NCBI GenBank assembly: GCA_034664845.1
Contig: JAXDGW010000064.1
Span: 21,632-85,631, forward strand
Origin: Thermoanaerobaculia bacterium
GTDB taxonomy: Bacteria; Acidobacteriota; Thermoanaerobaculia; Gp7-AA8
Reading direction: 5' to 3'
DNA length: 64,000 nucleotides
Every line of letters starts with the position of its first letter. Within the stretch, counting starts at the first letter, position 1. The translations under genes were made by a program, and so were the position numbers. Shown one piece after another: positions 53,629 to 64,000 of this stretch. The notes beneath the pieces are model-generated. The model was not told where the DNA came from. It saw only the letters and a list, made by a program, of their open reading frames with translations, and did not search any database.

Positions 53629-55791
53629 TTAACGTCCGAAGATCCGGCGCAATCGCCCCCACGCTCCTTCGACCTCCCGCCGGCTGCGATCGACGTCGTT
53701 GGCCCATTTGCGGAACTCCTCGAGCGTGATCGCCGCCGGTTCGTCGAAGTTGTCGCGGTCGAAGAAGACGCGGCGGACGATCCCGCCGAAGAAACCGGCG
53801 GGACACTTGTGCGTCGGCGCGGTGCCGCTGAGAAACACCTCCTGAATCGGAGGCGGACAGCCATCCTGCCAGAGCATGCCGGTCTCCGAATCGATCTCCC
53901 GGAATGTCACGCCCGAGGGAGCTTTCGGCTCGGTGTGGAGATGCGGGATCGAGCTCATGTACGCGCCCCAGATCGGAATGGCGGCCTCGCCGGACGAGAG
54001 CCGCAACGGCGCGCCGTGATCGAAGCCCACCCAGACGCTGGTGACCATGTCGGGAACGTAGCCGACGAACCAGGCGTCGCGGTAATCGCTCGTCGTGCCT
54101 GTTTTGCCGGCGACGTAGTCGAGGCCGTAGCGCTTGAGACGCGAGGCCGTGCCGCGCTGCACGACGCCCCGCAACAGGGTGTGGAGAACGTACGTCGCGT
54201 CGGCATTCGCGACGCGCTTCTGCACGAGGTCATGCGCGTAGAGCGTGTTGCCATCACGACTGCGAACCTCGCGGAGGAGGAACGGCTCGACGCGGATGCC
54301 GAGGTTCGGAAACGGCGTGTACGCCGCCGTCAGCTCGCGCATCGACACCTCGGTCACGCCAAGCGGCAGCGCCGGGATTTTGGCGAACTTCTCTTCGAAT
54401 CCGAACGACTCCGCGGTGCTGACCACGCGCGAAACGCCGATTTCCTCGGTGAGCCGCACCGTCGGAACGTTGAGCGAATGTTCGAAGGCCTCGCGCAGCG
54501 TGACGCGTCCCCGGTACCGGCCATCGTAGTTGTGCGGCTGCCAGCTCTCTTTGTCGCTGACCGCCACCGTCACGGGCGAGTCGAGCAGGAGCGAGGCGGT
54601 CGTCGCTTTCTTCGAGACGATGGCGGCGAGATACGCAAACGTCTTGAACGCCGAGCCGGGCTGGCGATGCATGGCCGAGGTGCGATCGAACGGCGAGACT
54701 GCGTAGTCGCTCCCACCGACGAGCGCACGAACGCCGCCGTTGCGCGGATCGACCGACAGCAGCGCAACTTGCAGCGGCTCGGAGCGAGCCTGCGCGCGAA
54801 GCCAGGAATGCGACGCTTCGAGTTGTGCCGGAGCACGCATGGCGACGCGCTCGGCATTGCGTTGCGCGGCCGGATCCATCTCGCAGACGATCGTCAGACC
54901 GCCCTCGATGATCGGATTCACACCGATCTCTTTCACGATGTCGGCGCGGAGCGCGCGCAGGTAGAACGGATAGGGCGCCCGCGGAATCTGACCGCCCTGA
55001 AAGTCGACGCCGCGGCTCTTCGCGGCCGAGAACTGCGCGTCATTGATCCAGTCGTGATCGTGCATGACGGCGAGAATCGCGTCGCGGCGCGCGCGCACGA
55101 CGTCGGGACGCTTCTCGGGTGTGTCGCGGTTCGGCGCGCGGATCATGCCGGCCAGTACCGCGGCTTCATCGACGCGAAGCTCCGAAGGACGTTTGTTGAA
55201 GTAGAGCCGCGACGCTTCATCGATGCCAAGGATTGGATTGCCGCCGCTGTGGCCGAGGTAGATGTCGTTGAGATAGACCTCGAGGATCTCGTTCTTCGAC
55301 ATCCGCGCGTCGAGCAGCACGGCCAGGATGATCTCGGGGATCTTCCGCCGCCACGTTCGCTCCTGCGAGAGAAAGCGCGCCTTGATGATCTGCTGATCGA
55401 TCGTCGAGCCGCCCGCGGCGATGCCGTGCGCGCGGATGTTCGTGAAGAGAGCGCGGGCCATGCCGATGGGATCGATGCCGAGGTGGTGATGAAAGCGAAC
55501 ATCTTCGGCGGCCAGAAAGGCACGCGAGACGTAGTCGGGCAACGACGCGAGCGTGACGGGTGGGGTTGTGCGCCAGTCGATGCCGTAGAGCGTGGCGACA
55601 CGAACCGGAGCCTGATGCGCCGCGGAGACGATGATGGTCGGCGCGCGCCAGGAATGGTTCACGAGCTGCCGCGTCAGGCGGCGATTGAGGATGAAGAGGT
55701 AGACGCTGAACGCCGCGAATGCGACGAACGCGAGCACGGCGATCGCCGCGATCCATCGCGGAAGCTGTTGCATGCGTGACAATCGCGACAT
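53629..55791 (-). CDS. Class A penicillin-binding protein (transglycosylase + transpeptidase, PBP1B-like)
   Basis: EDVRF..H.G, GGSTI.QQ, RK..E, K.EILE.YLN; QPGSAFK (SxxK), SLN, KTG. Confidence 0.92.
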   Translation of the reverse strand: MSRLSRMQQLPRWIAAIAVLAFVAFAAFSVYLFILNRRLTRQLVNHSWRAPTIIVSAAHQAPVRVATLYGIDWRTTPPVTLASLPDYVSRAFLAAEDVRFHHHLGIDPIGMARALFTNIRAHGIAAGGSTIDQQIIKARFLSQERTWRRKIPEIILAVLLDARMSKNEILEVYLNDIYLGHSGGNPILGIDEASRLYFNKRPSELRVDEAAVLAGMIRAPNRDTPEKRPDVVRARRDAILAVMHDHDWINDAQFSAAKSRGVDFQGGQIPRAPYPFYLRALRADIVKEIGVNPIIEGGLTIVCEMDPAAQRNAERVAMRAPAQLEASHSWLRAQARSEPLQVALLSVDPRNGGVRALVGGSDYAVSPFDRTSAMHRQPGSAFKTFAYLAAIVSKKATTASLLLDSPVTVAVSDKESWQPHNYDGRYRGRVTLREAFEHSLNVPTVRLTEEIGVSRVVSTAESFGFEEKFAKIPALPLGVTEVSMRELTAAYTPFPNLGIRVEPFLLREVRSRDGNTLYAHDLVQKRVANADATYVLHTLLRGVVQRGTASRLKRYGLDYVAGKTGTTSDYRDAWFVGYVPDMVTSVWVGFDHGAPLRLSSGEAAIPIWGAYMSSIPHLHTEPKAPSGVTFREIDSETGMLWQDGCPPPIQEVFLSGTAPTHKCPAGFFGGIVRRVFFDRDNFDEPAAITLEEFRKWANDVDRSRREVEGAWGRLRRIFGR

Positions 55792-55893: not shown

Positions 55894-56346
55894 ATGGCTG
55901 CCAAGAAGTCTGCAAAGAAGTCCGCGAAGTCGTCCGCGAAGTCGTCGAAGAAGTCCGCGAAGCCCGCGAAGAAGGCCGCAGCAAAGAAGCCGGCCGCGAA
56001 GAAGGCCGCGGCGAAGAAGTCGTCCGGCAAAAAGTCTTCGGCGAAGAAAGCCTCCGCCAAGCGTCCCGCGGCGAAGAGCGCTGCGAAGAAGCCGGCCGCG
56101 AAGAAAGCTGCTCCGAAAAAAGTAGCGGCAAAGAAAGCGGCCCCGAAGAAAGCTGCCCCGAAAAAAGCAGCTCCGAAGAAGTCCGCGAAGAAGAAGCCGG
56201 CAAAGAAGAGCGGCGCGATCGCCAGCGCCAAGAGCGTGATCAGCAAGGTGGTCGAGACCGTGAAGGGAACGGCGACCGACATCGGTCACGCCGTCTCGAA
56301 CGTCATGCCCGGCGGCGACAACGGCGGCGGCCAGAGCAACCCGTAA
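55894..56346 (+). CDS. Histone H1-like Lys/Ala/Pro-rich protein
   Basis: AGGAGA SD; many KKAAPK/KKPAAK repeats. Confidence 0.8.
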   Translation: MAAKKSAKKSAKSSAKSSKKSAKPAKKAAAKKPAAKKAAAKKSSGKKSSAKKASAKRPAAKSAAKKPAAKKAAPKKVAAKKAAPKKAAPKKAAPKKSAKKKPAKKSGAIASAKSVISKVVETVKGTATDIGHAVSNVMPGGDNGGGQSNP

Positions 56347-56452: not shown

Positions 56453-57508
56453 TCAGCCCGCGCTCTCGAACACCTTCCGAATCCGCTTCGAAAAGTATTT
56501 CGCTGACAGGCCGCCGCTCCACGTCTTGAGTTTCTTGGCTTTGCGGAACGACTCCAGCGCGTCGCGCTTGTAGCTGTCGTCGGCTTCGAAGGCGTATTGG
56601 GAGTATTGCGAGGCGCCGAGGAAGGCCCAGATCCAGGCGTTCTTGGGCATCTCCTGACTGAGACCCTTGAACTTCGTGGAGGCGTCGTCGAACTCGCCGC
56701 GGAAATAGCTCTCCAGTGCATCGCGCACGCGGCGGGACGGATCGGCGAGAACGGCGGCGCTCGCTTGCGCGGGGCGCGTCGCGATGGCGACCGGCGCCGG
56801 AATCGGCGCGCCTGGAGCGGGCGCGATGTCGGCGAGTTGAGCGGCGTTTCCGGCGGAGGCGATGGCGATGTTCAGATCGTCGTTGGTTCTCGGGTTGGCG
56901 CTTCGTGTCAGAGCCTCAGTCAGGAGTTGCGTGGCCTGCGTGTACTGCGGGGTGTTGTTTGCCTTCCGTTTCTGCGCGGCCGCGAGCCGCGCCTTGGCCT
57001 GATCGATCGCCGTCGCTGCCTTCTGCCGGAGCGCGGGATCGATCGACGGCGCGGTGGGTTGCACCGGCACTGGAACGGGCGGCGGCGCAACACGAGGCTG
57101 CGGTGCAACAGGCTGAGGCTGCGGTTGCGGCTCGGGCGTGCTCGCCGCCTCAAGTTTCGTTTTCGCGCGGCGCATCAATTCGCCGAGAGGTCCGAGATCC
57201 GCTTCGCCAGGCCCGCTCGTTTTCTCGAAATCGGAGACCGCCTGTTCGTACTTGCCCGAATTGAGATACGCCACTCCGCGGTAGTAGTAGGGGTGATAGG
57301 TGATGAAGATCGCGCCGTACGTCCGTTCGTGGTCGCTTTCCTTCGGATGGCCGTTGATGGCCGCCGTCATCTTCTGGATCACAACCCCCCACTGCCCTTT
57401 GTTGGCGGCGGCGATGCCCGCATCGTAATCGTCGTACCACGACGCCAGCGCTGCCGTGGCCAGCAGCAACCCCAGGATTCCGATCGTGAAGGTTCGCGTG
57501 AGTCTCAT
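56453..57508 (-). CDS. Exported TPR-repeat protein with Pro-rich linker
   Basis: Signal peptide; TPR YYYRGVAYLNSGKYEQAVSDF; PQPQPVAP linker; C-terminal TPR-like helices. Confidence 0.8.
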   Translation of the reverse strand: MRLTRTFTIGILGLLLATAALASWYDDYDAGIAAANKGQWGVVIQKMTAAINGHPKESDHERTYGAIFITYHPYYYRGVAYLNSGKYEQAVSDFEKTSGPGEADLGPLGELMRRAKTKLEAASTPEPQPQPQPVAPQPRVAPPPVPVPVQPTAPSIDPALRQKAATAIDQAKARLAAAQKRKANNTPQYTQATQLLTEALTRSANPRTNDDLNIAIASAGNAAQLADIAPAPGAPIPAPVAIATRPAQASAAVLADPSRRVRDALESYFRGEFDDASTKFKGLSQEMPKNAWIWAFLGASQYSQYAFEADDSYKRDALESFRKAKKLKTWSGGLSAKYFSKRIRKVFESAG

Positions 57509-59316
57509 GGTTTCGCGACTTCCTTTTCCAGTTCTTCGAAATTCACATCCTCCGTCTTGATCATCTTCCGGTTCCGCTTTCCCGCTTCGATATCGACCGT
57601 CACGGTTTGCTTCGTTCCGTTTGGCCCGGCCACCGTGACCTTGTAACGGCCCGGCTCGAGATCAATACGCGTTGGCATGTCCCTCCTCTCATCGGTCAGG
57701 TCGATCGACTTGCCCTTGTCGTCGATGATCGTTTCCAGCTCACCCGAGGGCGAGGCCGAAAGGAGGAGCGCACCTTGTCCCGCGGCGATCGGAGCGGTGG
57801 ATGTAGGAGCCGTCGCCGTCACACTCGTCGTGCTTGCAGCGACGGTCGGTGCCGCGCTCTGGCTGTTTTTCCAGATGAGGAAACCGGCGACGCCGAGAAC
57901 GATCACGACGGCCGCGGCGATGCCGATCATCATCCCGCTGTTGCTCTTCTTCGGAGCGAGCGATCCCGGCGTGATCTGGCGCTCGATCATCGTCGCCTCG
58001 GCGCCCGGACCGCCGCTCCACTTCTGCTCCGCCGCGGTCGGTGCGGCCTGCGAGTTGAAGCGCTCCATCACCGTCGCCTCGTCGCTGCCGGTGCGTGTTC
58101 CCGGAGCGCCAGCCAACGACGCGGCGCCGAGGTTGCGCTCCATGACCGTGGCCTCATCGCTGCCGACTCGCGTCCCGGTCGGCCCGACACGCACCTCGGC
58201 CTGCGTCGGCTGGCCGGTCATCGTCTGCTGCGTGGCCTGTTGTCCGCTGTATGTGCCGCCGGGGCCGGTCATGAACTTCGGCAGTTCGGCCAGCGTCTGC
58301 GCGCCGGAGAGGGTGATCATCCGCTCGCCGAGTCCGTACTTGGCGTCGGGCGGAACGGTGTTGCGGATCGCCTCGAGGGCGTGCTCGAAATCAGCCGCGG
58401 TGGCGTAGCGGTTGTCGCGGCTCTTTTCGAGCGAGCGCATGATCACCGACTCCACCTGCGACGGCACTTTCACGGCAGGATTGAGCTCGTGAATCGGCAG
58501 CGGTTTCTCGGTGACGTGCTTGAGGATGTAGCCGTGGGGATTGGTGGCCTGGAACGGCGCGCGGCCCGCCAGCATCTCGTACATGACGATGCCGAACGAG
58601 TAGAGATCGGAGCGCGGGTCGAGGTGCTCTCCTTCTTTGAGGAAGCCGGCCTGCTCGGGCGATGCGTATTTGAGCTTGCCGAGGAACATGCCGGTCTGCG
58701 TGAGCCCCTGGCCGCCTTCCCCTTCTGCCAGCTGCTTGGCGATACCGAAGTCGATGACCTTCACCAGCAGTTTGCCGTGGTGGTCCTGCGACAGCATGAT
58801 GTTTTCCGGCGAGATGTCGCGGTGGATGAGGCCCATGGAGTGGAGATGATCGAGTCCGCTCAACGCCTGAATCGAAATTTCGATGGCTAAACGTGAGGGC
58901 ATCGCTCCGTTCTGCGCGATCCACTTCTGAATGTTCGTGCCGTCGATGAACTCCCACACCATGTAGTAGGAGCCGTCGTCGAGCTGGGCGAAGTCGTAAA
59001 GCATCGCCAGGTTCTTGTGCTTGATCATCGTCGACGTGCGCGCCTCCTGGAGGAAGCGCTGCATGCCCTGATCGTCGGCGGCGACGTTCGGCCGCATGAT
59101 TTTGATGACGCGAAGCTCGTTGAGATGGATGTGGCGGACTTTGAAGATCTCGCCCATGCCGCCGACGCCGAGGCGGTCGAGGATCTGGTACTTGCCGTCG
59201 AGCAGCTTCGATGAGTAGGTCCTCTGGAACATCGTCACGCGCTCACCGCACGCGGGACACTGCTCCAGATTCACATCGATCGGCTGTTTGCAGCGAAGGC
59301 AGTTGATTTGGCTCAT
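57505..59316 (-). CDS. Membrane Ser/Thr protein kinase with N-terminal zinc ribbon and C-terminal extracytoplasmic PEGA-like domain
   Basis: CLRC..CPAC; LGVGGMG, VIK, HRDISPEN, DFGIAK; TM GIAAAVVIVLGVAGFLIW. Confidence 0.92.
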   Translation of the reverse strand: MSQINCLRCKQPIDVNLEQCPACGERVTMFQRTYSSKLLDGKYQILDRLGVGGMGEIFKVRHIHLNELRVIKIMRPNVAADDQGMQRFLQEARTSTMIKHKNLAMLYDFAQLDDGSYYMVWEFIDGTNIQKWIAQNGAMPSRLAIEISIQALSGLDHLHSMGLIHRDISPENIMLSQDHHGKLLVKVIDFGIAKQLAEGEGGQGLTQTGMFLGKLKYASPEQAGFLKEGEHLDPRSDLYSFGIVMYEMLAGRAPFQATNPHGYILKHVTEKPLPIHELNPAVKVPSQVESVIMRSLEKSRDNRYATAADFEHALEAIRNTVPPDAKYGLGERMITLSGAQTLAELPKFMTGPGGTYSGQQATQQTMTGQPTQAEVRVGPTGTRVGSDEATVMERNLGAASLAGAPGTRTGSDEATVMERFNSQAAPTAAEQKWSGGPGAEATMIERQITPGSLAPKKSNSGMMIGIAAAVVIVLGVAGFLIWKNSQSAAPTVAASTTSVTATAPTSTAPIAAGQGALLLSASPSGELETIIDDKGKSIDLTDERRDMPTRIDLEPGRYKVTVAGPNGTKQTVTVDIEAGKRNRKMIKTEDVNFEELEKEVAKP

Positions 59317-59332
59317 GTTTGCTCCGGGGTTC

Positions 59333-59412
59333 GCGGTCGCGGGGTCTCGCGGTTTCGTGGTCTCGCGGGGAACAGGCCGCGCGACGGCGAAACTTCGCGA
59401 CCTCGCTACCGC
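59333..59412. repeat. GGTCTCGCGG-unit palindrome
   Basis: GCGGTCGCGGGGTCTCGCGG versus CGCGACCTCGCTACCGC. Confidence 0.55.
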
Positions 59413-59413
59413 A

Positions 59414-60634
59414 TCACTGATTTCTCAACACATAACTACACGCCGGGTCCGCGCCGAACCGCACGACGTCTCCAGGCTTCAACGCCGTCTTCTCGACACG
59501 CGTGTTGTTCACATACGTTCCGTTGGCGGATTTCAGATCTTCGAGCGTGCACGCTCCGCCGTTCATTGTGATGCGGGCGTGGCGCCGCGAGACTGCCGGA
59601 TGGGTCAGCACCACCGAACAGGTGCGGTCGCGCCCGACCATGATGCTGTCGCCCTGCAGCGCGTGCTTCTCGTTCGCTTCGGGCTTCACGTGGACGAGCT
59701 GCCACTGCTGCTGCGCCGGCGCTTTTGCGGCGGCCTCGGCGACTGCGGCAGGCATCGGCCGCATGGTCGGCGTGTAGCCGGGGCGGAGGTTGTACTCCTC
59801 GAGCGCCTCGAAGAACGCGCGGGCCGATTCGTAGCGCTGCTCCATGCGCGGATGCATGGCGCGCAACACGATCGCCTCCAGCTCAGCGTCGATCTCCGGC
59901 CGAAGAGCGCGCGGCTGCTGTTTCTCGCCGCGGTAGATGGCGTCGATCAGCTTCGGCAGCGAGCGGCTGTTGAACGGCAATGCACCGGTCAGCATCTCGT
60001 ACAGAACGACGCCAGACGAGTAGACATCGCTCTTCGCTCCAGCATCCTTCGGCTCGCGGATCTGCTCGGGAGACATGTAGTGGGGAGTGCCGAGGAGGAA
60101 GCCGGACTTGGTCAGGACGGTCTGGCCGCTGCCGGCGCCCCCTTCTTTGATCTTGGCGATGCCGAAGTCGGTCACTTTGACCACGCCGTTTTTCTCGCGG
60201 ATCAGATTCGCGGGCTTGATGTCGCGGTGAACGATGCCTTTGCCGTGCGCGTAGACCAGCGCCTCGAGCAGACACTGCGCCGTCCCAATGGCGTCGGCGA
60301 TCGGCATCGCGCCGCGTTCGGTCAGCAGCACATCGACGGGAGTGCCCTCGACCAACTCCATGACCAGCACGGCGTGATCGGTTTTGTTGATGAACTCGTA
60401 GAACCGGGTGATGTAGCGGTGGCGCAGCTTCTCGAGAATGTGCGCCTCTTTCACGAAGCGCTTCCGGGCGGTCACTTCACCGGCCAGCTCCTCATTGATC
60501 ACTTTGAGGACGACGACATAGTCCTCCGGAAGGATCTCGCTGCGGGCGACCGTGCGGCCGACATAGACGTGGCTCATCCCACCTTCGCCGAGCTCGCGCT
60601 CGATGCGGTAGTTGCCGACGACGTTGCCGATCAT
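59414..60634 (-). CDS. Cytoplasmic Ser/Thr kinase with C-terminal FHA domain
   Basis: LGEGGM, VLK, HRDIKPAN, DFGIAK, GTPHYMSPEQ; FHA GRDRTC...VSRRHA...DLKSANGTYVN. Confidence 0.93.
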   Translation of the reverse strand: MIGNVVGNYRIERELGEGGMSHVYVGRTVARSEILPEDYVVVLKVINEELAGEVTARKRFVKEAHILEKLRHRYITRFYEFINKTDHAVLVMELVEGTPVDVLLTERGAMPIADAIGTAQCLLEALVYAHGKGIVHRDIKPANLIREKNGVVKVTDFGIAKIKEGGAGSGQTVLTKSGFLLGTPHYMSPEQIREPKDAGAKSDVYSSGVVLYEMLTGALPFNSRSLPKLIDAIYRGEKQQPRALRPEIDAELEAIVLRAMHPRMEQRYESARAFFEALEEYNLRPGYTPTMRPMPAAVAEAAAKAPAQQQWQLVHVKPEANEKHALQGDSIMVGRDRTCSVVLTHPAVSRRHARITMNGGACTLEDLKSANGTYVNNTRVEKTALKPGDVVRFGADPACSYVLRNQ

Positions 60635-61293
60635 TTCAGAACGCCCTCTTCATCCCAGTAGAACCCTTCTTCGCAGAGAGGCACGAAGATGTATTTGTGG
60701 GAGCCGACGCGGACGATGTCTTTCGTGGCGAGATCGCGCCGCGGCTCGATCTCGGTCTCGTTGACATAGGTTCCGTTCGTGGAGTTGTGGTCCATCAGAA
60801 TGAATCGCCGCTCTTCGGGGCGGAAAACGAGATCGGCATGATGCGAGGAGGCCTGGTCGTCGTTGACGACGATGTCGGAGCGCCGGTCGCGGCCGAGGAC
60901 GTTGCGGCCGATGCGCACGGGAAAGGATTCGCCGCGTGCTGTGCCATTCAAGCCGACCAGCCAGGCGACGACGTACCGTTTGGGCTGGGCATTGGGATCG
61001 AGTTTCTGCACCGCGACCGTGCGGTCGGCCGCCTCCGGCTCAACGCCAACCGCGGCAGCGGCGTCGACACGGGCCATCGTTTTGGGCGGCGGAACCGCGG
61101 TCGGCCTACGCACCGGCTCGCCCGGAACGGGCGCGGGCCGCTGCGCTTCCGGCAGACCGAAACGCGTCGGGCGTACGACCGGGACATCGGGCTCGGAGGT
61201 TTCCACAGGGCAGTACGGACAGAGATCCCAGCTCTCATCGATAAAGTGCCCGTTCTCACACCGCTTATCAGCCACGTTCAGCGCCTCACGCAT
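60631..61293 (-). CDS. Zinc-ribbon + FHA domain protein
   Basis: CENGH...CPYC; Pro-rich linker; GRDRRSDI...SSHHA...DHNSTNGTYVN. Confidence 0.88.
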   Translation of the reverse strand: MREALNVADKRCENGHFIDESWDLCPYCPVETSEPDVPVVRPTRFGLPEAQRPAPVPGEPVRRPTAVPPPKTMARVDAAAAVGVEPEAADRTVAVQKLDPNAQPKRYVVAWLVGLNGTARGESFPVRIGRNVLGRDRRSDIVVNDDQASSHHADLVFRPEERRFILMDHNSTNGTYVNETEIEPRRDLATKDIVRVGSHKYIFVPLCEEGFYWDEEGVLK

Positions 61294-62914
61294 GGAAGGC
61301 GATCGCAACCGCGTTGCGTCCGCCGAAATAGATGATGTCGCCGTCCTTCAGGAACCGTTTGTCGATCTTCTGGTCGTTGACGTATGTCCCATTTGACGAG
61401 TTCCTGTCGATCAGCAGCACCTTGCCGTCGATCGACACCACTTCCGCATGCAGCCGGGAGACCTTGGGATTCTCCAATACGATCTCACACATCGCCGATT
61501 CCCGTCCGATGCGAATGCCCGAACCACCGAGTCCGAGCCGCTCGCCGGCTCGCGATCCGTTGAGAATCGTGAGCTTGCCGAGCATCTGCGGCGCGCCGGG
61601 CGGCACGCTGGCCGGCGAGACGACGCGCTCGGTCGTGACTTTGAGCATGTCGGCGGCGATGCGCGGGCGGCGAACGTGCGGGAGAGTCAGCACGAGCGCC
61701 AGCGCTGCGATCGCGCCGCCGGCGCCGGCAGTCGCCACCGGATGCTTGCGCCAGAGCGGCATCGATTGCAGCGCGCGCTCGGTGTCGTGACGAAAGCGAA
61801 TGAGGTCGGGCGAGTTAGGGAAAAGAGCGTTCGCGCTGGCCAGCTCGGTCGAAGCAACCGTCCACTTGCCCTCCTGCGCCGCATCGAGCGAAGCCCGGTA
61901 GTGCCGGTCGAACTCACCCTGTTCGTTGATGGGAACCTTCGTCTCCGCGAGGAAGCTCCTGGCCACGTTGACCGGAACGAGAAACTTGATCGATTCGGCG
62001 TCGCTGCGGCCCCAGGTGGAGATGCCGATCACATCGCCGTTCCGGTTCACGGCCGGCCCGCCTGAGTTGCCGCGATAAATGGCGACGTTCGACTGGAACA
62101 CCGGCGTGTTCGCCACGTTGCGCTTGATGGCCGTGATGATGCCGGGACTGAACGTCGCCTCGAGGTCGCTGTCGCGCGACAGCCAGCCGCCGATGACGTC
62201 GTCGGTGCTGCTGGCGACCGCCGGATAGCCGTACGCCCAGATCGGTTCGCCGACGCGCGTGGAATCGGAATCGCCGAGGGTCAGGACCGGGAGGTTTTTC
62301 CGCTTCACGCGAAGGAGGGCGAGATCGGTGCCGTGCTGCGCCAACGCCGGAGAAAAGCGCTCGATCGTGAAGGGCAGCTTCTCGCCGTTGGAGAGATCGA
62401 TCTCGTTCGTGACGACGCGCGCCACGAGATGTCCGTTGGAAACGAGAGTGCCGATGTAGCGATCGAGTGCATCGCTGCGATAGAGCTTGCGAAGCTCGTC
62501 GACCGGAAAGTGCTTCAACAACGCCGAGATGGCTCCGTTGCGCAGCAGCTCGCGGTCGAGCGCAGCCGCGTCGCGCGTCGGTTCGACGACGTGTCCGCTC
62601 GTGAGGATCAAGCCATCGGGATTGATGATGAAGCCGCTGCCGGAGCCGCCGGCGCCGGTCGGCACTTCCATCTCAATCTGGGCAACCCGCTGCGCGGCAA
62701 CGTCGTAGCCGTCGCTCTTTAGTGCGGCGGCGATCCCCGCGATCGCGGCGGGCGAGTAGCGAAATTGCGCCGTCGCAAATGCGCTGATGCGGACGACCGC
62801 CGGCTTCACTTCGTAGGCCATCTTGCCGACGTCGTCGAGGTGCGCCACGTCACCGCGGCAGCCGAGCGCCGTCAGAAGCAGCAGGATGAAAACGAGCCGG
62901 GACAGGGAGGCCAT
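61286..62914 (-). CDS. Trypsin-like (S1) serine protease - TM - FHA fusion
   Basis: Lipobox LTALGC; triad in TSGHVV, TDLALL and GNSGGP; TM AGAGGAIAALALVLTL; FHA GRES...VSRLHA...DRNSSNGTYVN; a GATAAT -10 box 6 nt before ATG 62914. Confidence 0.88.
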   Translation of the reverse strand: MASLSRLVFILLLLTALGCRGDVAHLDDVGKMAYEVKPAVVRISAFATAQFRYSPAAIAGIAAALKSDGYDVAAQRVAQIEMEVPTGAGGSGSGFIINPDGLILTSGHVVEPTRDAAALDRELLRNGAISALLKHFPVDELRKLYRSDALDRYIGTLVSNGHLVARVVTNEIDLSNGEKLPFTIERFSPALAQHGTDLALLRVKRKNLPVLTLGDSDSTRVGEPIWAYGYPAVASSTDDVIGGWLSRDSDLEATFSPGIITAIKRNVANTPVFQSNVAIYRGNSGGPAVNRNGDVIGISTWGRSDAESIKFLVPVNVARSFLAETKVPINEQGEFDRHYRASLDAAQEGKWTVASTELASANALFPNSPDLIRFRHDTERALQSMPLWRKHPVATAGAGGAIAALALVLTLPHVRRPRIAADMLKVTTERVVSPASVPPGAPQMLGKLTILNGSRAGERLGLGGSGIRIGRESAMCEIVLENPKVSRLHAEVVSIDGKVLLIDRNSSNGTYVNDQKIDKRFLKDGDIIYFGGRNAVAIAFHA

Positions 62915-62921
62915 TGCGCGA

Positions 62922-64000
62922 TTATCGGTGGGAGGGAGCGGTAGTTCTGGCGGTTCCTTGTTGATACCAGTAGACCCACGCGCCGGCAGTGCTGAGCAAG
63001 AGGACGAGAGCGAGCACGCAACCGAGCATGGAGCGCTTCGGTGCCGGCTTCGGAACGGCACGGACCGGCGTCTCGACCGTCTTGTCCATCGGGTCTTCGA
63101 TCTCCAGCGTGACATCGGAGACCGCTGCTCCTGCATGTTCGACAGGCTTGTCGCCCGGTGCCGTTACAGCGTCTGCCGCTGGATTTGCCGCCGCTGCCTG
63201 CTCCGCTTCGAGCGCCTCGAGCAACGCCGCCATCGGCGCGGTGTCGCGCTGGGTCTCATCGAGCGGATGATCGGCCAGCGTCTCGTCGGCATCGACGAGT
63301 GTGGCGTCACCAACATCGTCAACCGGGACGATCTTCGCCACGATCACGGTGACGTTGTCGGGCGCGCCGCGAGCCAGCGCCCGCTTCACGTACTCGGTCG
63401 CGGCCTGATCGATGGGGAGCGCGGCGATCTCTTTCAGCTCGGGCTCTTTGACGAGTCCGTGCAAGCCGTCGCTGCAGAGGATGAAGACGTCATCCTTCTG
63501 TACGTCGAACGGACCAAAGACATCGATCTCGACATCCTCAGCAACTCCCATGGAGCGCTGCAGGACGTTGCGGCGCGGATGCGTCTCGGCCTCTTTCGCC
63601 GTCAGCAGCCCCTCCCGCACCATCGAGGCGACGAGCGAGTGATCCTCGGTGATCTGGCGAATGTCATCGCCGCGTACGACGTAGATGCGCGAGTCGCCGA
63701 CGTGTGCGAACCAGGCCTGATTGTTCTTGACGACGAGCGCGGAGGTCGTCGTCCCCATCCCTCTCAAATCAGGATTCGCCTGGGCTTCCGAAAAGATCCT
63801 CGCGTTGGCCCGCGCCAGCGCCTCGCGCAAGGCTTGGGAGATGTCGTAGGTCTCGCTGCCGAGGTATTGGGCCTTGACCGTCTCGCCGGCGAGCCTCGAT
63901 GCGGTGGCCCCGCCACGATGCCCGCCCATGCCGTCCGCAACGACGAGCAACCGTCCGCCGGGATGACTGTGGCTCTCTTCGCGCGGCGTGGTGTAGGTGC
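62922..64000 (-). CDS. PP2C/PPM family Ser/Thr phosphatase with C-terminal TM (5'-truncated by window edge)
   Basis: VADGMGGH.GG..AS, GMGTT, HVGDSR.Y, TEDHSLV, RNVLQRSMG, CSDGL, GAPDNVTV; the frame is open to the window edge. Confidence 0.93.
   Translation of the reverse strand, partial: TYTTPREESHSHPGGRLLVVADGMGGHRGGATASRLAGETVKAQYLGSETYDISQALREALARANARIFSEAQANPDLRGMGTTTSALVVKNNQAWFAHVGDSRIYVVRGDDIRQITEDHSLVASMVREGLLTAKEAETHPRRNVLQRSMGVAEDVEIDVFGPFDVQKDDVFILCSDGLHGLVKEPELKEIAALPIDQAATEYVKRALARGAPDNVTVIVAKIVPVDDVGDATLVDADETLADHPLDETQRDTAPMAALLEALEAEQAAAANPAADAVTAPGDKPVEHAGAAVSDVTLEIEDPMDKTVETPVRAVPKPAPKRSMLGCVLALVLLLSTAGAWVYWYQQGTARTTAPSHR

Follow-up and report, generated by a model that had tools for sequence, protein, structure and literature searches.

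A conserved six-gene phospho-signalling operon of Thermoanaerobaculia encodes an HtrA-like protease with a predicted cytoplasmic FHA tail

Modules of Hanks-type Ser/Thr kinases, PP2C phosphatases and FHA domains regulate cell-wall growth, secretion and metabolism. The FHA-bearing effectors of such modules are, to our knowledge, scaffolds, transporters and enzyme inhibitors. Here we describe an operon of this kind at the right end of a 64,000-nucleotide stretch of DNA from a Thermoanaerobaculia bacterium (Acidobacteriota; assembly GCA_034664845.1, contig JAXDGW010000064.1, positions 21,632 to 85,631 of the forward strand), hereafter referred to as the window. The six genes of the operon encode a PP2C phosphatase, a protease joined to an FHA domain through a transmembrane (TM) helix, a Zn-ribbon-FHA protein, a soluble kinase-FHA protein, a membrane kinase and an exported TPR protein. 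What distinguishes this operon is that the reader domain is joined across the membrane to an intact protease.

Several described systems resemble parts of the operon. The actinobacterial cluster fhaA-fhaB(fipA)-pstP-rodA-pbpA-pknA-pknB (Rv0014c-Rv0020c in Mycobacterium tuberculosis) likewise contains two Hanks kinases, one of them receptor-type, a TM-anchored PP2C, several FHA readers and a nearby peptidoglycan synthase gene. Compared to that cluster, the operon lacks PASTA domains, has neither RodA nor a class B penicillin-binding protein (PBP) inside it, and its FHA proteins fall below the FhaB/FipA cutoff. On the other hand, it adds an FHA domain joined through the membrane to an HtrA-like protease, a kinase with its own FHA domain and an exported TPR protein. 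The two kinases scored 281.8 and 251.5 bits against NF033483, the model for PknB/Stk1 PASTA kinases (cutoff 450 bits), and matched it in the kinase domain only.

Membrane-anchored HtrA proteases such as DegS (MEROPS S1C) share with the protease of the operon an inner-membrane-tethered periplasmic chymotrypsin fold, a His-Asp-Ser triad and the GNSGGP motif, and DegS shows that such a protease can serve as a regulated signalling switch. In contrast to these proteases, the protein described here has no PDZ domain, carries a predicted helical insert of ~50 residues after the catalytic His and has a C-terminal TM anchor together with a probable N-terminal lipid anchor. Its regulator would be a cytoplasmic FHA domain instead of a periplasmic PDZ domain. 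The closest precedent for an FHA-controlled transmembrane effector is Rv1747 of M. tuberculosis, an FHA-bearing ABC transporter that is regulated by PknF and encoded next to this mark-writing kinase. Both proteins are membrane effectors with their own cytoplasmic FHA domains, but Rv1747 is an exporter with an N-terminal tandem FHA, whereas here a serine protease of the periplasm carries the FHA at its C-terminus. The PpkA-PppA-Fha pathway of type VI secretion systems (T6SS), with its periplasmic component TagR/RtkS, is similar in having a receptor Hanks kinase that bears a small beta-domain in the periplasm, an exported partner, a PP2C and an FHA protein that switches a membrane machine (PMC6082577). 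Unlike that pathway, the operon has no T6SS genes nearby, its FHA proteins do not belong to the TagH/Fha family, and the switched output would be a protease.

The six genes are all located on the minus strand, in the same orientation, at positions 56453-64000 of the window. Domains were called by Pfam and NCBIfam profile searches (E-values are given in brackets below), and topologies were predicted by inspection of hydropathy and motifs. In the order of transcription, the genes are:

62922..64000, minus strand: PP2C Ser/Thr phosphatase of the Stp1/IreP type, 396 aa (PP2C_2, 2.9e-16; NF033484)
61286..62914, minus strand: protease-TM-FHA protein, 542 aa (Trypsin_2, 1.9e-28; FHA, 5.3e-19)
60631..61293, minus strand: Zn-ribbon-FHA protein, 220 aa, with an alternative TTG start at 61308 (FHA, 2.2e-17)
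59414..60634, minus strand: soluble Hanks-type Ser/Thr kinase with a C-terminal FHA domain, 406 aa (Pkinase, 1.3e-48; FHA, 1.1e-22)
57505..59316, minus strand: receptor-type Hanks kinase, 603 aa (Pkinase, 1.8e-45)
56453..57508, minus strand: exported TPR-containing protein, 351 aa, whose first 4 nt overlap the end of the kinase gene (TPR_1, 1.3e-06)

Consistent with the initial annotation, which was made from the sequence of the window and described six co-oriented and mostly overlapping genes, three of the five junctions overlap (protease/Zn-ribbon-FHA, 8 nt; Zn-ribbon-FHA/kinase-FHA, 4 nt; membrane kinase/TPR, 4 nt), and the other two have gaps of 7 nt (PP2C/protease) and 97 nt (kinase-FHA/membrane kinase). 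The domain inventory given there was likewise recovered, with three FHA domains bearing GR/SxxH/NG residues, two kinases bearing the K, HRD, DFG and SPE motifs, and one PP2C. Across the operon proteins, the catalytic and phospho-Thr-binding residues are intact and invariant. The start of the protease gene was assigned to 62914, not to the 63136 of a longer open reading frame. The phosphatase is TM-anchored as had been proposed, but its gene is not wholly contained in the window, since the first 37 codons (112 nt) lie past the edge and the gene would start at 64112. The sequence past the right edge came from an exact-protein look-up, which identified a 122.7-kb (122,743 bp) soil-metagenome contig of the Joint Genome Institute (locus L001) that was 100% identical to the window over the full 14,587-bp overlap. 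By coordinate arithmetic, the far end of the window falls outside L001, so the window stems from a different and longer assembly of the same population.

The protease protein is predicted to comprise a lipoprotein-type signal (Cys19), a periplasmic HtrA-like S1C protease domain, a helical bundle, one TM helix, a disordered linker and a cytoplasmic FHA domain. Its main parts are:

61946..62833, minus strand: periplasmic chymotrypsin-fold protease domain, residues 28-323 (triad His108/Asp197/Ser284, the last in GNSGGP)
61679..61741, minus strand: TM helix, residues 392-412, followed by the positive-inside signal RRPR
61289..61591, minus strand: cytoplasmic FHA domain, residues 442-542 (phospho-Thr-binding signature G470-R471, S486, H489, N508-G509)

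The triad was invariant in 59 sequences, including four distant ones, and the GR/SxxH/NG residues of the FHA domain were invariant across 59-64 orthologues. The FHA tail was the best conserved part of the protein among orthologues, with a mean identity of 90% compared to 70% for the protease domain. The lipoprotein label of the initial annotation is plausible, as a PROSITE-like lipobox was found in 56 of 64 orthologues and Cys19 was at least 90% conserved.

An AlphaFold monomer model of the protein, based on a 59-sequence alignment (pLDDT 82), predicted a signal helix, a chymotrypsin fold (residues 28-323), a helical bundle (334-390), the TM helix, a disordered linker (414-441) and an FHA domain (446-541). 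Right after His108, the model placed an insert of ~50 residues that forms four extra helices (107-159). The loop ASSTDDVIGGWLSRD (residues 234-248; window 62171-62215) had a pLDDT below 50 and yet was 91% identical across 64 orthologues; it could be a conserved flexible element with a regulatory or substrate-binding role. In Foldseek searches, the protease matched HtrA1, HtrA2, DegP and MucD at E-values of about 2e-14, with target TM-scores of up to 0.84, and sequence and Foldseek searches grouped the protease domain with HtrA1, HtrA2, HtrA3, DegP, DegQ and MucD. However, no PDZ domain was matched in Pfam or NCBIfam, and the protease domain is followed in the model by the helical bundle, the TM helix and the FHA domain. 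The score against the Do-family model TIGR02037 was 103.7 bits (cutoff 416 bits), and the scores for every HtrA-family model of NCBIfam were far below cutoff. The protease domain is HtrA-like, but for want of a PDZ domain the whole protein does not qualify as a canonical HtrA.

To follow the operon in relatives, we scanned genomes with the protease protein and obtained 71 full-length loci, all from metagenome-assembled genomes of Thermoanaerobaculia/Acidobacteriota, at 58-92% identity. The loci were then searched by tblastn with the six proteins and the flanking genes. The six genes keep their order and strand in every sufficiently long locus, in about 70 species-level genomes, and the TPR protein was found in all 51 loci that reach that far. 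Past the right edge of the window, L001 contains metabolic genes and no genes of a T6SS or another known machine. Upstream of the PP2C gene the gene context is variable, and even the closest relatives of the window differ from it there. Since the six genes are syntenic while the upstream region varies, they form a conserved core. The operon is best explained as a chromosomal, vertically inherited Hanks-type Ser/Thr phospho-signalling unit.

On the downstream side, a PBP1A gene follows the TPR gene at a median distance of 740 nt in 39 loci across the clade, usually with a methyltransferase gene next to it. In the window, this gene is:

53629..55773, minus strand: PBP1A-family bifunctional peptidoglycan synthase (TIGR02074, 512.7 bits; cutoff 508.75 bits)

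PBP1A is conserved as a neighbour on the downstream side but forms a transcription unit of its own, and is treated here as context, not as a demonstrated part of the system.

The protease family extends well beyond these relatives. The close family comprises at least 1,252 clusters at 90% identity, and an exhaustive search of 1.84 billion cluster representatives returned 149 matches below 1e-30, about 100 of which were full-length (520-600 aa, 27-38% identity) when clustered at 50% identity. The His/Asp/Ser triad, a TM helix separating the protease from the FHA domain, and the GR/SxxH residues of the latter were all kept in 76 of the 96 full-length representatives at 50% identity. The intervening TM helix occurs in nearly all family representatives, and the long spacing from His to Asp is family-wide, with a median of about 90 residues. 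In some members, the single FHA domain is replaced by a rhodanese domain, a rhodanese plus a cNMP-binding domain, or a tandem FHA-FHA (P0214, P0256, P0165, P0260).

Distant members (25-38% identity) were found in cassettes of protease-FHA, Zn-ribbon-FHA, PP2C and membrane Ser/Thr kinase (STK) genes in four of seven look-ups (L080, L081, L084, L087). A metagenome scan seeded solely with distant members added 79 loci, about 22 of them with an FHA-tailed protease. Among these, about 17 loci were informative, and essentially all showed the protease-FHA gene followed by FHA, PP2C and STK genes, or a subset of these cut by the contig end. The operon proteins and the distant cassette proteins matched best role by role: the FHA domain of the protease with distant protease FHAs, the membrane kinase with the membrane kinases of L084 and L087, the Zn-ribbon-FHA protein with the standalone FHA proteins of L080, L084 and L087, which have the same C-x2-GH...SW-x2-CP-x-C ribbon, and the kinase domain of the kinase-FHA protein with the extra soluble kinase of L080. 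These matches indicate that the operon in the window is a rearranged and expanded four-gene cassette, to which, as judged from sequence comparison, a second kinase with its own FHA domain and the TPR protein have been added.

The protease-TM-FHA gene was also seen in other surroundings. It is followed by genes for an ECF sigma factor and a zf-HC2 anti-sigma factor in L086 (281-4010), adjoins a gene for an FHA-sigma54 activator on the contig of P0211, and is overlapped by a gene for a 550-aa TPR protein in L088 (9001-12425), suggesting that the protease module is wired into other regulatory circuits too. Literature searches returned no description of a trypsin/HtrA-TM-FHA protein or of the cassette. 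A domain survey from 2008 listed, without studying it, one FHA-FHA-Trypsin protein from Bacteroides thetaiotaomicron (PMC2605481).

The other operon proteins would supply the writers, the eraser and further readers of phospho-Thr marks. The full-length phosphatase scored 245.2 bits against the Stp1/IreP equivalog model NF033484, above the cutoff of 230 bits. It is predicted to have a cytoplasmic catalytic domain, an acidic linker and a C-terminal TM anchor (residues 360-383). Over 59 orthologues, its catalytic domain is 81% conserved and the metal-binding motifs DGMGG, SDG and DN are invariant. The two kinases carry the motifs VVLK/VIKI, HRDIKPAN/HRDISPEN, DFG and SPE, which are conserved in orthologues. 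Hydropathy inspection showed no TM helix in the kinase-FHA protein. The membrane kinase has an N-terminal CxxC...CxxC Zn ribbon, a kinase domain (91% conserved among orthologues), a Thr-rich juxtamembrane linker, a TM helix (residues 458-485) and ~118 periplasmic residues predicted to form a beta-sandwich. This ectodomain had initially been labelled PEGA, a label that is weakly supported: PF08308 gave no match on the protein even at E <= 10, and weakly matched 21 of 52 orthologous ectodomains (best, 3.7e-4). The best Pfam match of the ectodomain was CarboxypepD_reg (E = 0.011), a family matched by 30 of the 52 orthologues and one that we take to belong to the same beta-sandwich clan as PEGA.

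The Zn-ribbon-FHA protein consists of the conserved ribbon described above, a Pro-rich linker, a conserved [DE]RTVAVQK motif just ahead of the FHA domain, the FHA domain itself and a conserved acidic/aromatic tail. The TPR protein has a cleavable signal peptide with the predicted cut between ALA and SWYDDYD, an N-terminal TPR-like domain, Pro-rich linkers and a conserved C-terminal helical domain.

FHA domains commonly prefer ligands with an acidic residue at position +3, of the type pT-x-x-D/E, as does Rad53 FHA1. Orthologue conservation pointed to short motifs of this kind in two of the membrane proteins:

63240..63311, minus strand: post-catalytic linker of the PP2C, with the acidic Thr motifs ATLVD, ETLAD and ETQRD (TxxD)
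57979..58155, minus strand: juxtamembrane repeats EATVMER, EATVMER and EATMIER of the membrane kinase, residues 388-446

At least one T[LIVMQ]x[DE] motif, in the form DET[QLV]x[DE] (DETxxD), occurs within 70 aa past the PP2C domain in 58 of 59 orthologues, in a linker that is otherwise 23% conserved. One to three copies of the EATVMER repeat are present in 51 of 54 orthologues of the membrane kinase, where Thr415 and Glu418 are invariant and the linker is only 51% conserved. Both sets of motifs are candidate FHA-docking sites, and may also serve as phospho-acceptor sites in the PP2C linker and as autophosphorylation sites in the kinase. The [DE]RTVAVQK motif of the Zn-ribbon-FHA protein is a further candidate for FHA docking. 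Among ten membrane kinases of distant cassettes, five have T-V-x-[DE] in the juxtamembrane linker, whereas by chance a match would be expected, as we estimate, in fewer than 1 in 10 of them.

The reading that we favour, and in which we place about even confidence, is an inside-out one, in which phospho-Thr marks written by the kinases and erased by the PP2C are read by the cytoplasmic FHA tail of the protease and thereby control periplasmic proteolysis. In such a scheme, the receptor kinase would respond to a cue from the periplasm, perhaps jointly with the exported TPR protein that is co-translated with it, and would autophosphorylate on the threonines of its juxtamembrane EATVMER repeats. 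The receptor kinase and the soluble kinase-FHA protein would phosphorylate acidic Thr motifs of their partners, for example DETxxD in the PP2C and RTVAVQK in the Zn-ribbon-FHA protein, and the soluble kinase would be recruited to primed sites and extend the signal. The three FHA domains would read the phospho-Thr marks, with the Zn-ribbon-FHA protein acting as an adaptor. Docking of the protease's FHA tail on the marks would recruit or localise its periplasmic domain, cluster it or switch it allosterically, such that the phosphorylation state of the cytoplasm would set proteolysis in the periplasm. The membrane-anchored PP2C would erase the marks and reset the system. As candidate substrates of the protease, we consider the ectodomain of the membrane kinase, the TPR protein and enzymes of the cell wall, for instance PBP1A. 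As a substrate of the kinases, PBP1A was thought unlikely, given a cytoplasmic tail of about 6-12 residues without Thr. Within this scheme, we infer which kinase phosphorylates which protein, how FHA domains and sites are paired, the direction of signalling and the substrates.

A broader proposal is more tentative, and we hold it as possible rather than probable. The protein may represent a class of bitopic HtrA-like proteases without PDZ domains that is widespread but unstudied, and whose periplasmic activity would be gated on the cytoplasmic side by reader tails that can be exchanged (FHA, cNMP-binding, rhodanese). In the operon described here, up to three T-V-x-E marks, written by the receptor kinase on its own linker, might recruit and cluster a presumably trimeric protease beside the kinase ectodomain and the TPR partner. 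We know of no description of such logic, that is, phosphorylation-controlled inside-out extracytoplasmic proteolysis, for bacteria.

Several observations weigh against inside-out control. Three of the seven distant members looked up have no kinase neighbours, and the sample of distant kinases in which the linker motif was counted is small (n = 10). The model of the kinase ectodomain, a single beta-sandwich, is of medium confidence (pLDDT 65) and its Foldseek matches are weak and generic. In addition, the Thr motifs are short, so the role proposed for them is conjectural.

Signalling could also run in the opposite direction. The periplasmic HtrA-like domain might sense unfolded or specific envelope proteins, and a change in its oligomeric state would cluster the FHA tails and the kinases bound to them, leading to trans-autophosphorylation, with proteolysis as a secondary quality control. 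It is well established that HtrA proteins shift their oligomeric state on substrate binding and that Hanks kinases are activated by dimerisation. As modelled, the single TM helix, the conserved membrane-proximal helical bundle and the FHA tail would fit this direction, and the flexible conserved loop 234-248 is reminiscent of HtrA sensor loops. Nevertheless, we regard outside-in signalling as unlikely. A receptor kinase dedicated to sensing, with an ectodomain of its own, is already present in the operon, and the cNMP-binding and rhodanese tails of homologous proteases are ligand-reading inputs, not outputs; for these two reasons, we prefer the inside-out direction. All the alternative tails, double FHA included, are input or reader domains, which favours control from cytoplasm to periplasm. 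Furthermore, FHA binding requires a partner that has been phosphorylated beforehand, and the strict conservation of the triad argues for selection on proteolysis itself. The operon might instead be a cell-wall growth module, an acidobacterial counterpart of the actinobacterial FhaA-FhaB-PstP-RodA-PbpA-PknA-PknB system, whose FHA proteins scaffold peptidoglycan synthesis and whose protease is set beside PBP1A by its FHA tail to process wall enzymes; such a module could be a special case. The clade-wide PBP1A gene after the operon, the PstP-like anchoring of the PP2C, and sub-threshold matches of the three FHA domains to FhaB/FipA and of both kinases to PknB-type models are in keeping with it. 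However, PBP1A is a separate unit that is often split off by an opposite-strand gene, its short tail offers no Thr, and it is absent from all the distant cassettes. PASTA domains, RodA and a class B PBP are missing, and the FhaB/FipA scores (NF049868; cutoff 125 bits) were 47.8, 64.6 and 66 bits. Overall, we consider a cell-wall module quite improbable.

Two further explanations place the operon in larger machines or in conflict. Since kinase/PP2C/FHA trios regulate T6SS (PMC6082577), the operon could be an accessory threonine-phosphorylation pathway of a secretion machine (T6SS or another) encoded elsewhere in the genome, and its exported TPR partner coupled to a kinase adds to the likeness. 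The ectodomain model is also weakly similar to the periplasmic domain of PpkA in the RtkS complex (9k1u, E = 0.015), a generic match on which we did not build. Yet the flanking ~10 kb on each side contained no T6SS or other secretion genes, nor did the genes conserved next to the operon in about 70 relatives include any, and the three FHA proteins scored 24.9-38.8 bits against the TagH/Fha model TIGR03354 (cutoff 120 bits). On the basis of this context and these sub-threshold scores, the secretion explanation was rejected, leaving it scarcely any probability. A role in conflict or defence against phages, with infection sensed by the kinases and the protease acting as effector, would agree with the strong matches of both kinases to the PD-T4-6 and MADS kinase (mad6) models of PADLOC and the weak match of the protease to its RT-protease models; FHA and trypsin-like domains are found in conflict systems as well (PMC7159879). 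These PADLOC matches, however, reflect generic kinase and trypsin domains, the Zn-ribbon-FHA and TPR proteins had none, and no defence architecture was matched. The operon is passed on vertically, occupies a fixed site in the chromosome with housekeeping genes around it and is not anomalous in composition, and the protease faces the periplasm. We rejected the defence role because of the generic matches and the vertical inheritance, and consider it very improbable.

The surroundings of the operon were characterized on both sides. Upstream of the PP2C gene, L001 encodes a methylmalonate-semialdehyde dehydrogenase, a 178-aa exported protein, an amino-acid permease and an Xre-type antitoxin-like protein. 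The last of these, a 70-aa protein with an Xre/MbcA/ParS C-terminal domain, is encoded beside a 612-aa protein without Pfam match (L001 138-2279), both on the strand opposite to the operon, and the two may be a toxin-antitoxin-like pair. A hairpin 3' of the dehydrogenase gene and a TATAAT found by eye ~20 nt before the PP2C start (both in L001, outside the window) indicate that the transcription unit begins at the PP2C gene, and a sigma-70 promoter scan found nothing inside the operon. Downstream, the operon is followed by an opposite-strand gene for a Lys/Ala-rich HC2-like protein, the PBP1A-family synthase and a bifunctional homocysteine methyltransferase/MTHFR. The Lys/Ala-rich protein (150 aa; window 55894-56346, plus strand), located between the TPR gene and PBP1A, has AKKAAAKK repeats and a weak match to the histone-H1-like Pfam family HC2 (E = 4.9e-05), and a similar Lys-rich open reading frame fills the same gap in 22 of the 39 related loci.

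In one sub-clade of relatives (L004, L005, L009, L010, L014, L063, L065), the region 0.1-4.5 kb upstream of the PP2C gene encodes a CHASE2 membrane protein, an NtrC-type sigma54 response regulator and an FecR-like exported protein, after menaquinone biosynthesis genes. This set looks like a second signalling module placed beside the operon. In a deeper clade, a gene for an FHA-GAF-class III nucleotidyl cyclase of ~558 aa lies ~100-300 nt upstream of the PP2C gene, on the opposite strand and divergent from it (39 loci with a match of more than 300 aa; L015, L023-L056, L066, L069, L071, L072). The cyclase gene is absent at the matching position in the close clade of the window (beyond 64000 of the window; L001 4849-6522). 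It would give the ancestral locus a cyclic-nucleotide output and a fourth FHA reader. The initial annotation had viewed the operon as a self-contained envelope signalling circuit coupled to periplasmic proteolysis. Its self-contained nature agrees with the synteny, the lack of machine genes nearby and the recurrence of the cassette in distant lineages, but the circuit is not wholly closed, considering the cyclase of the deeper clade and the clade-wide PBP1A neighbour, and the coupling to proteolysis is a functional interpretation.

If the inside-out reading is true, cytoplasmic phosphorylation would directly control periplasmic proteolysis in these bacteria, which is the reverse of the logic of DegS, in which signals travel inward from a cue in the periplasm. 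The cassette occurs abundantly in metagenomes from soil and sediment, and the sequencing runs that matched the locus itself were soil DNA metagenomes, with no RNA run among them. Given its three FHA domains, two kinases and single phosphatase, together with short motifs that are candidates for docking, the operon offers a defined and tractable test system. Recognition of the family would also aid the annotation of genes labelled 'serine protease Do' or 'trypsin-like peptidase domain-containing protein'.

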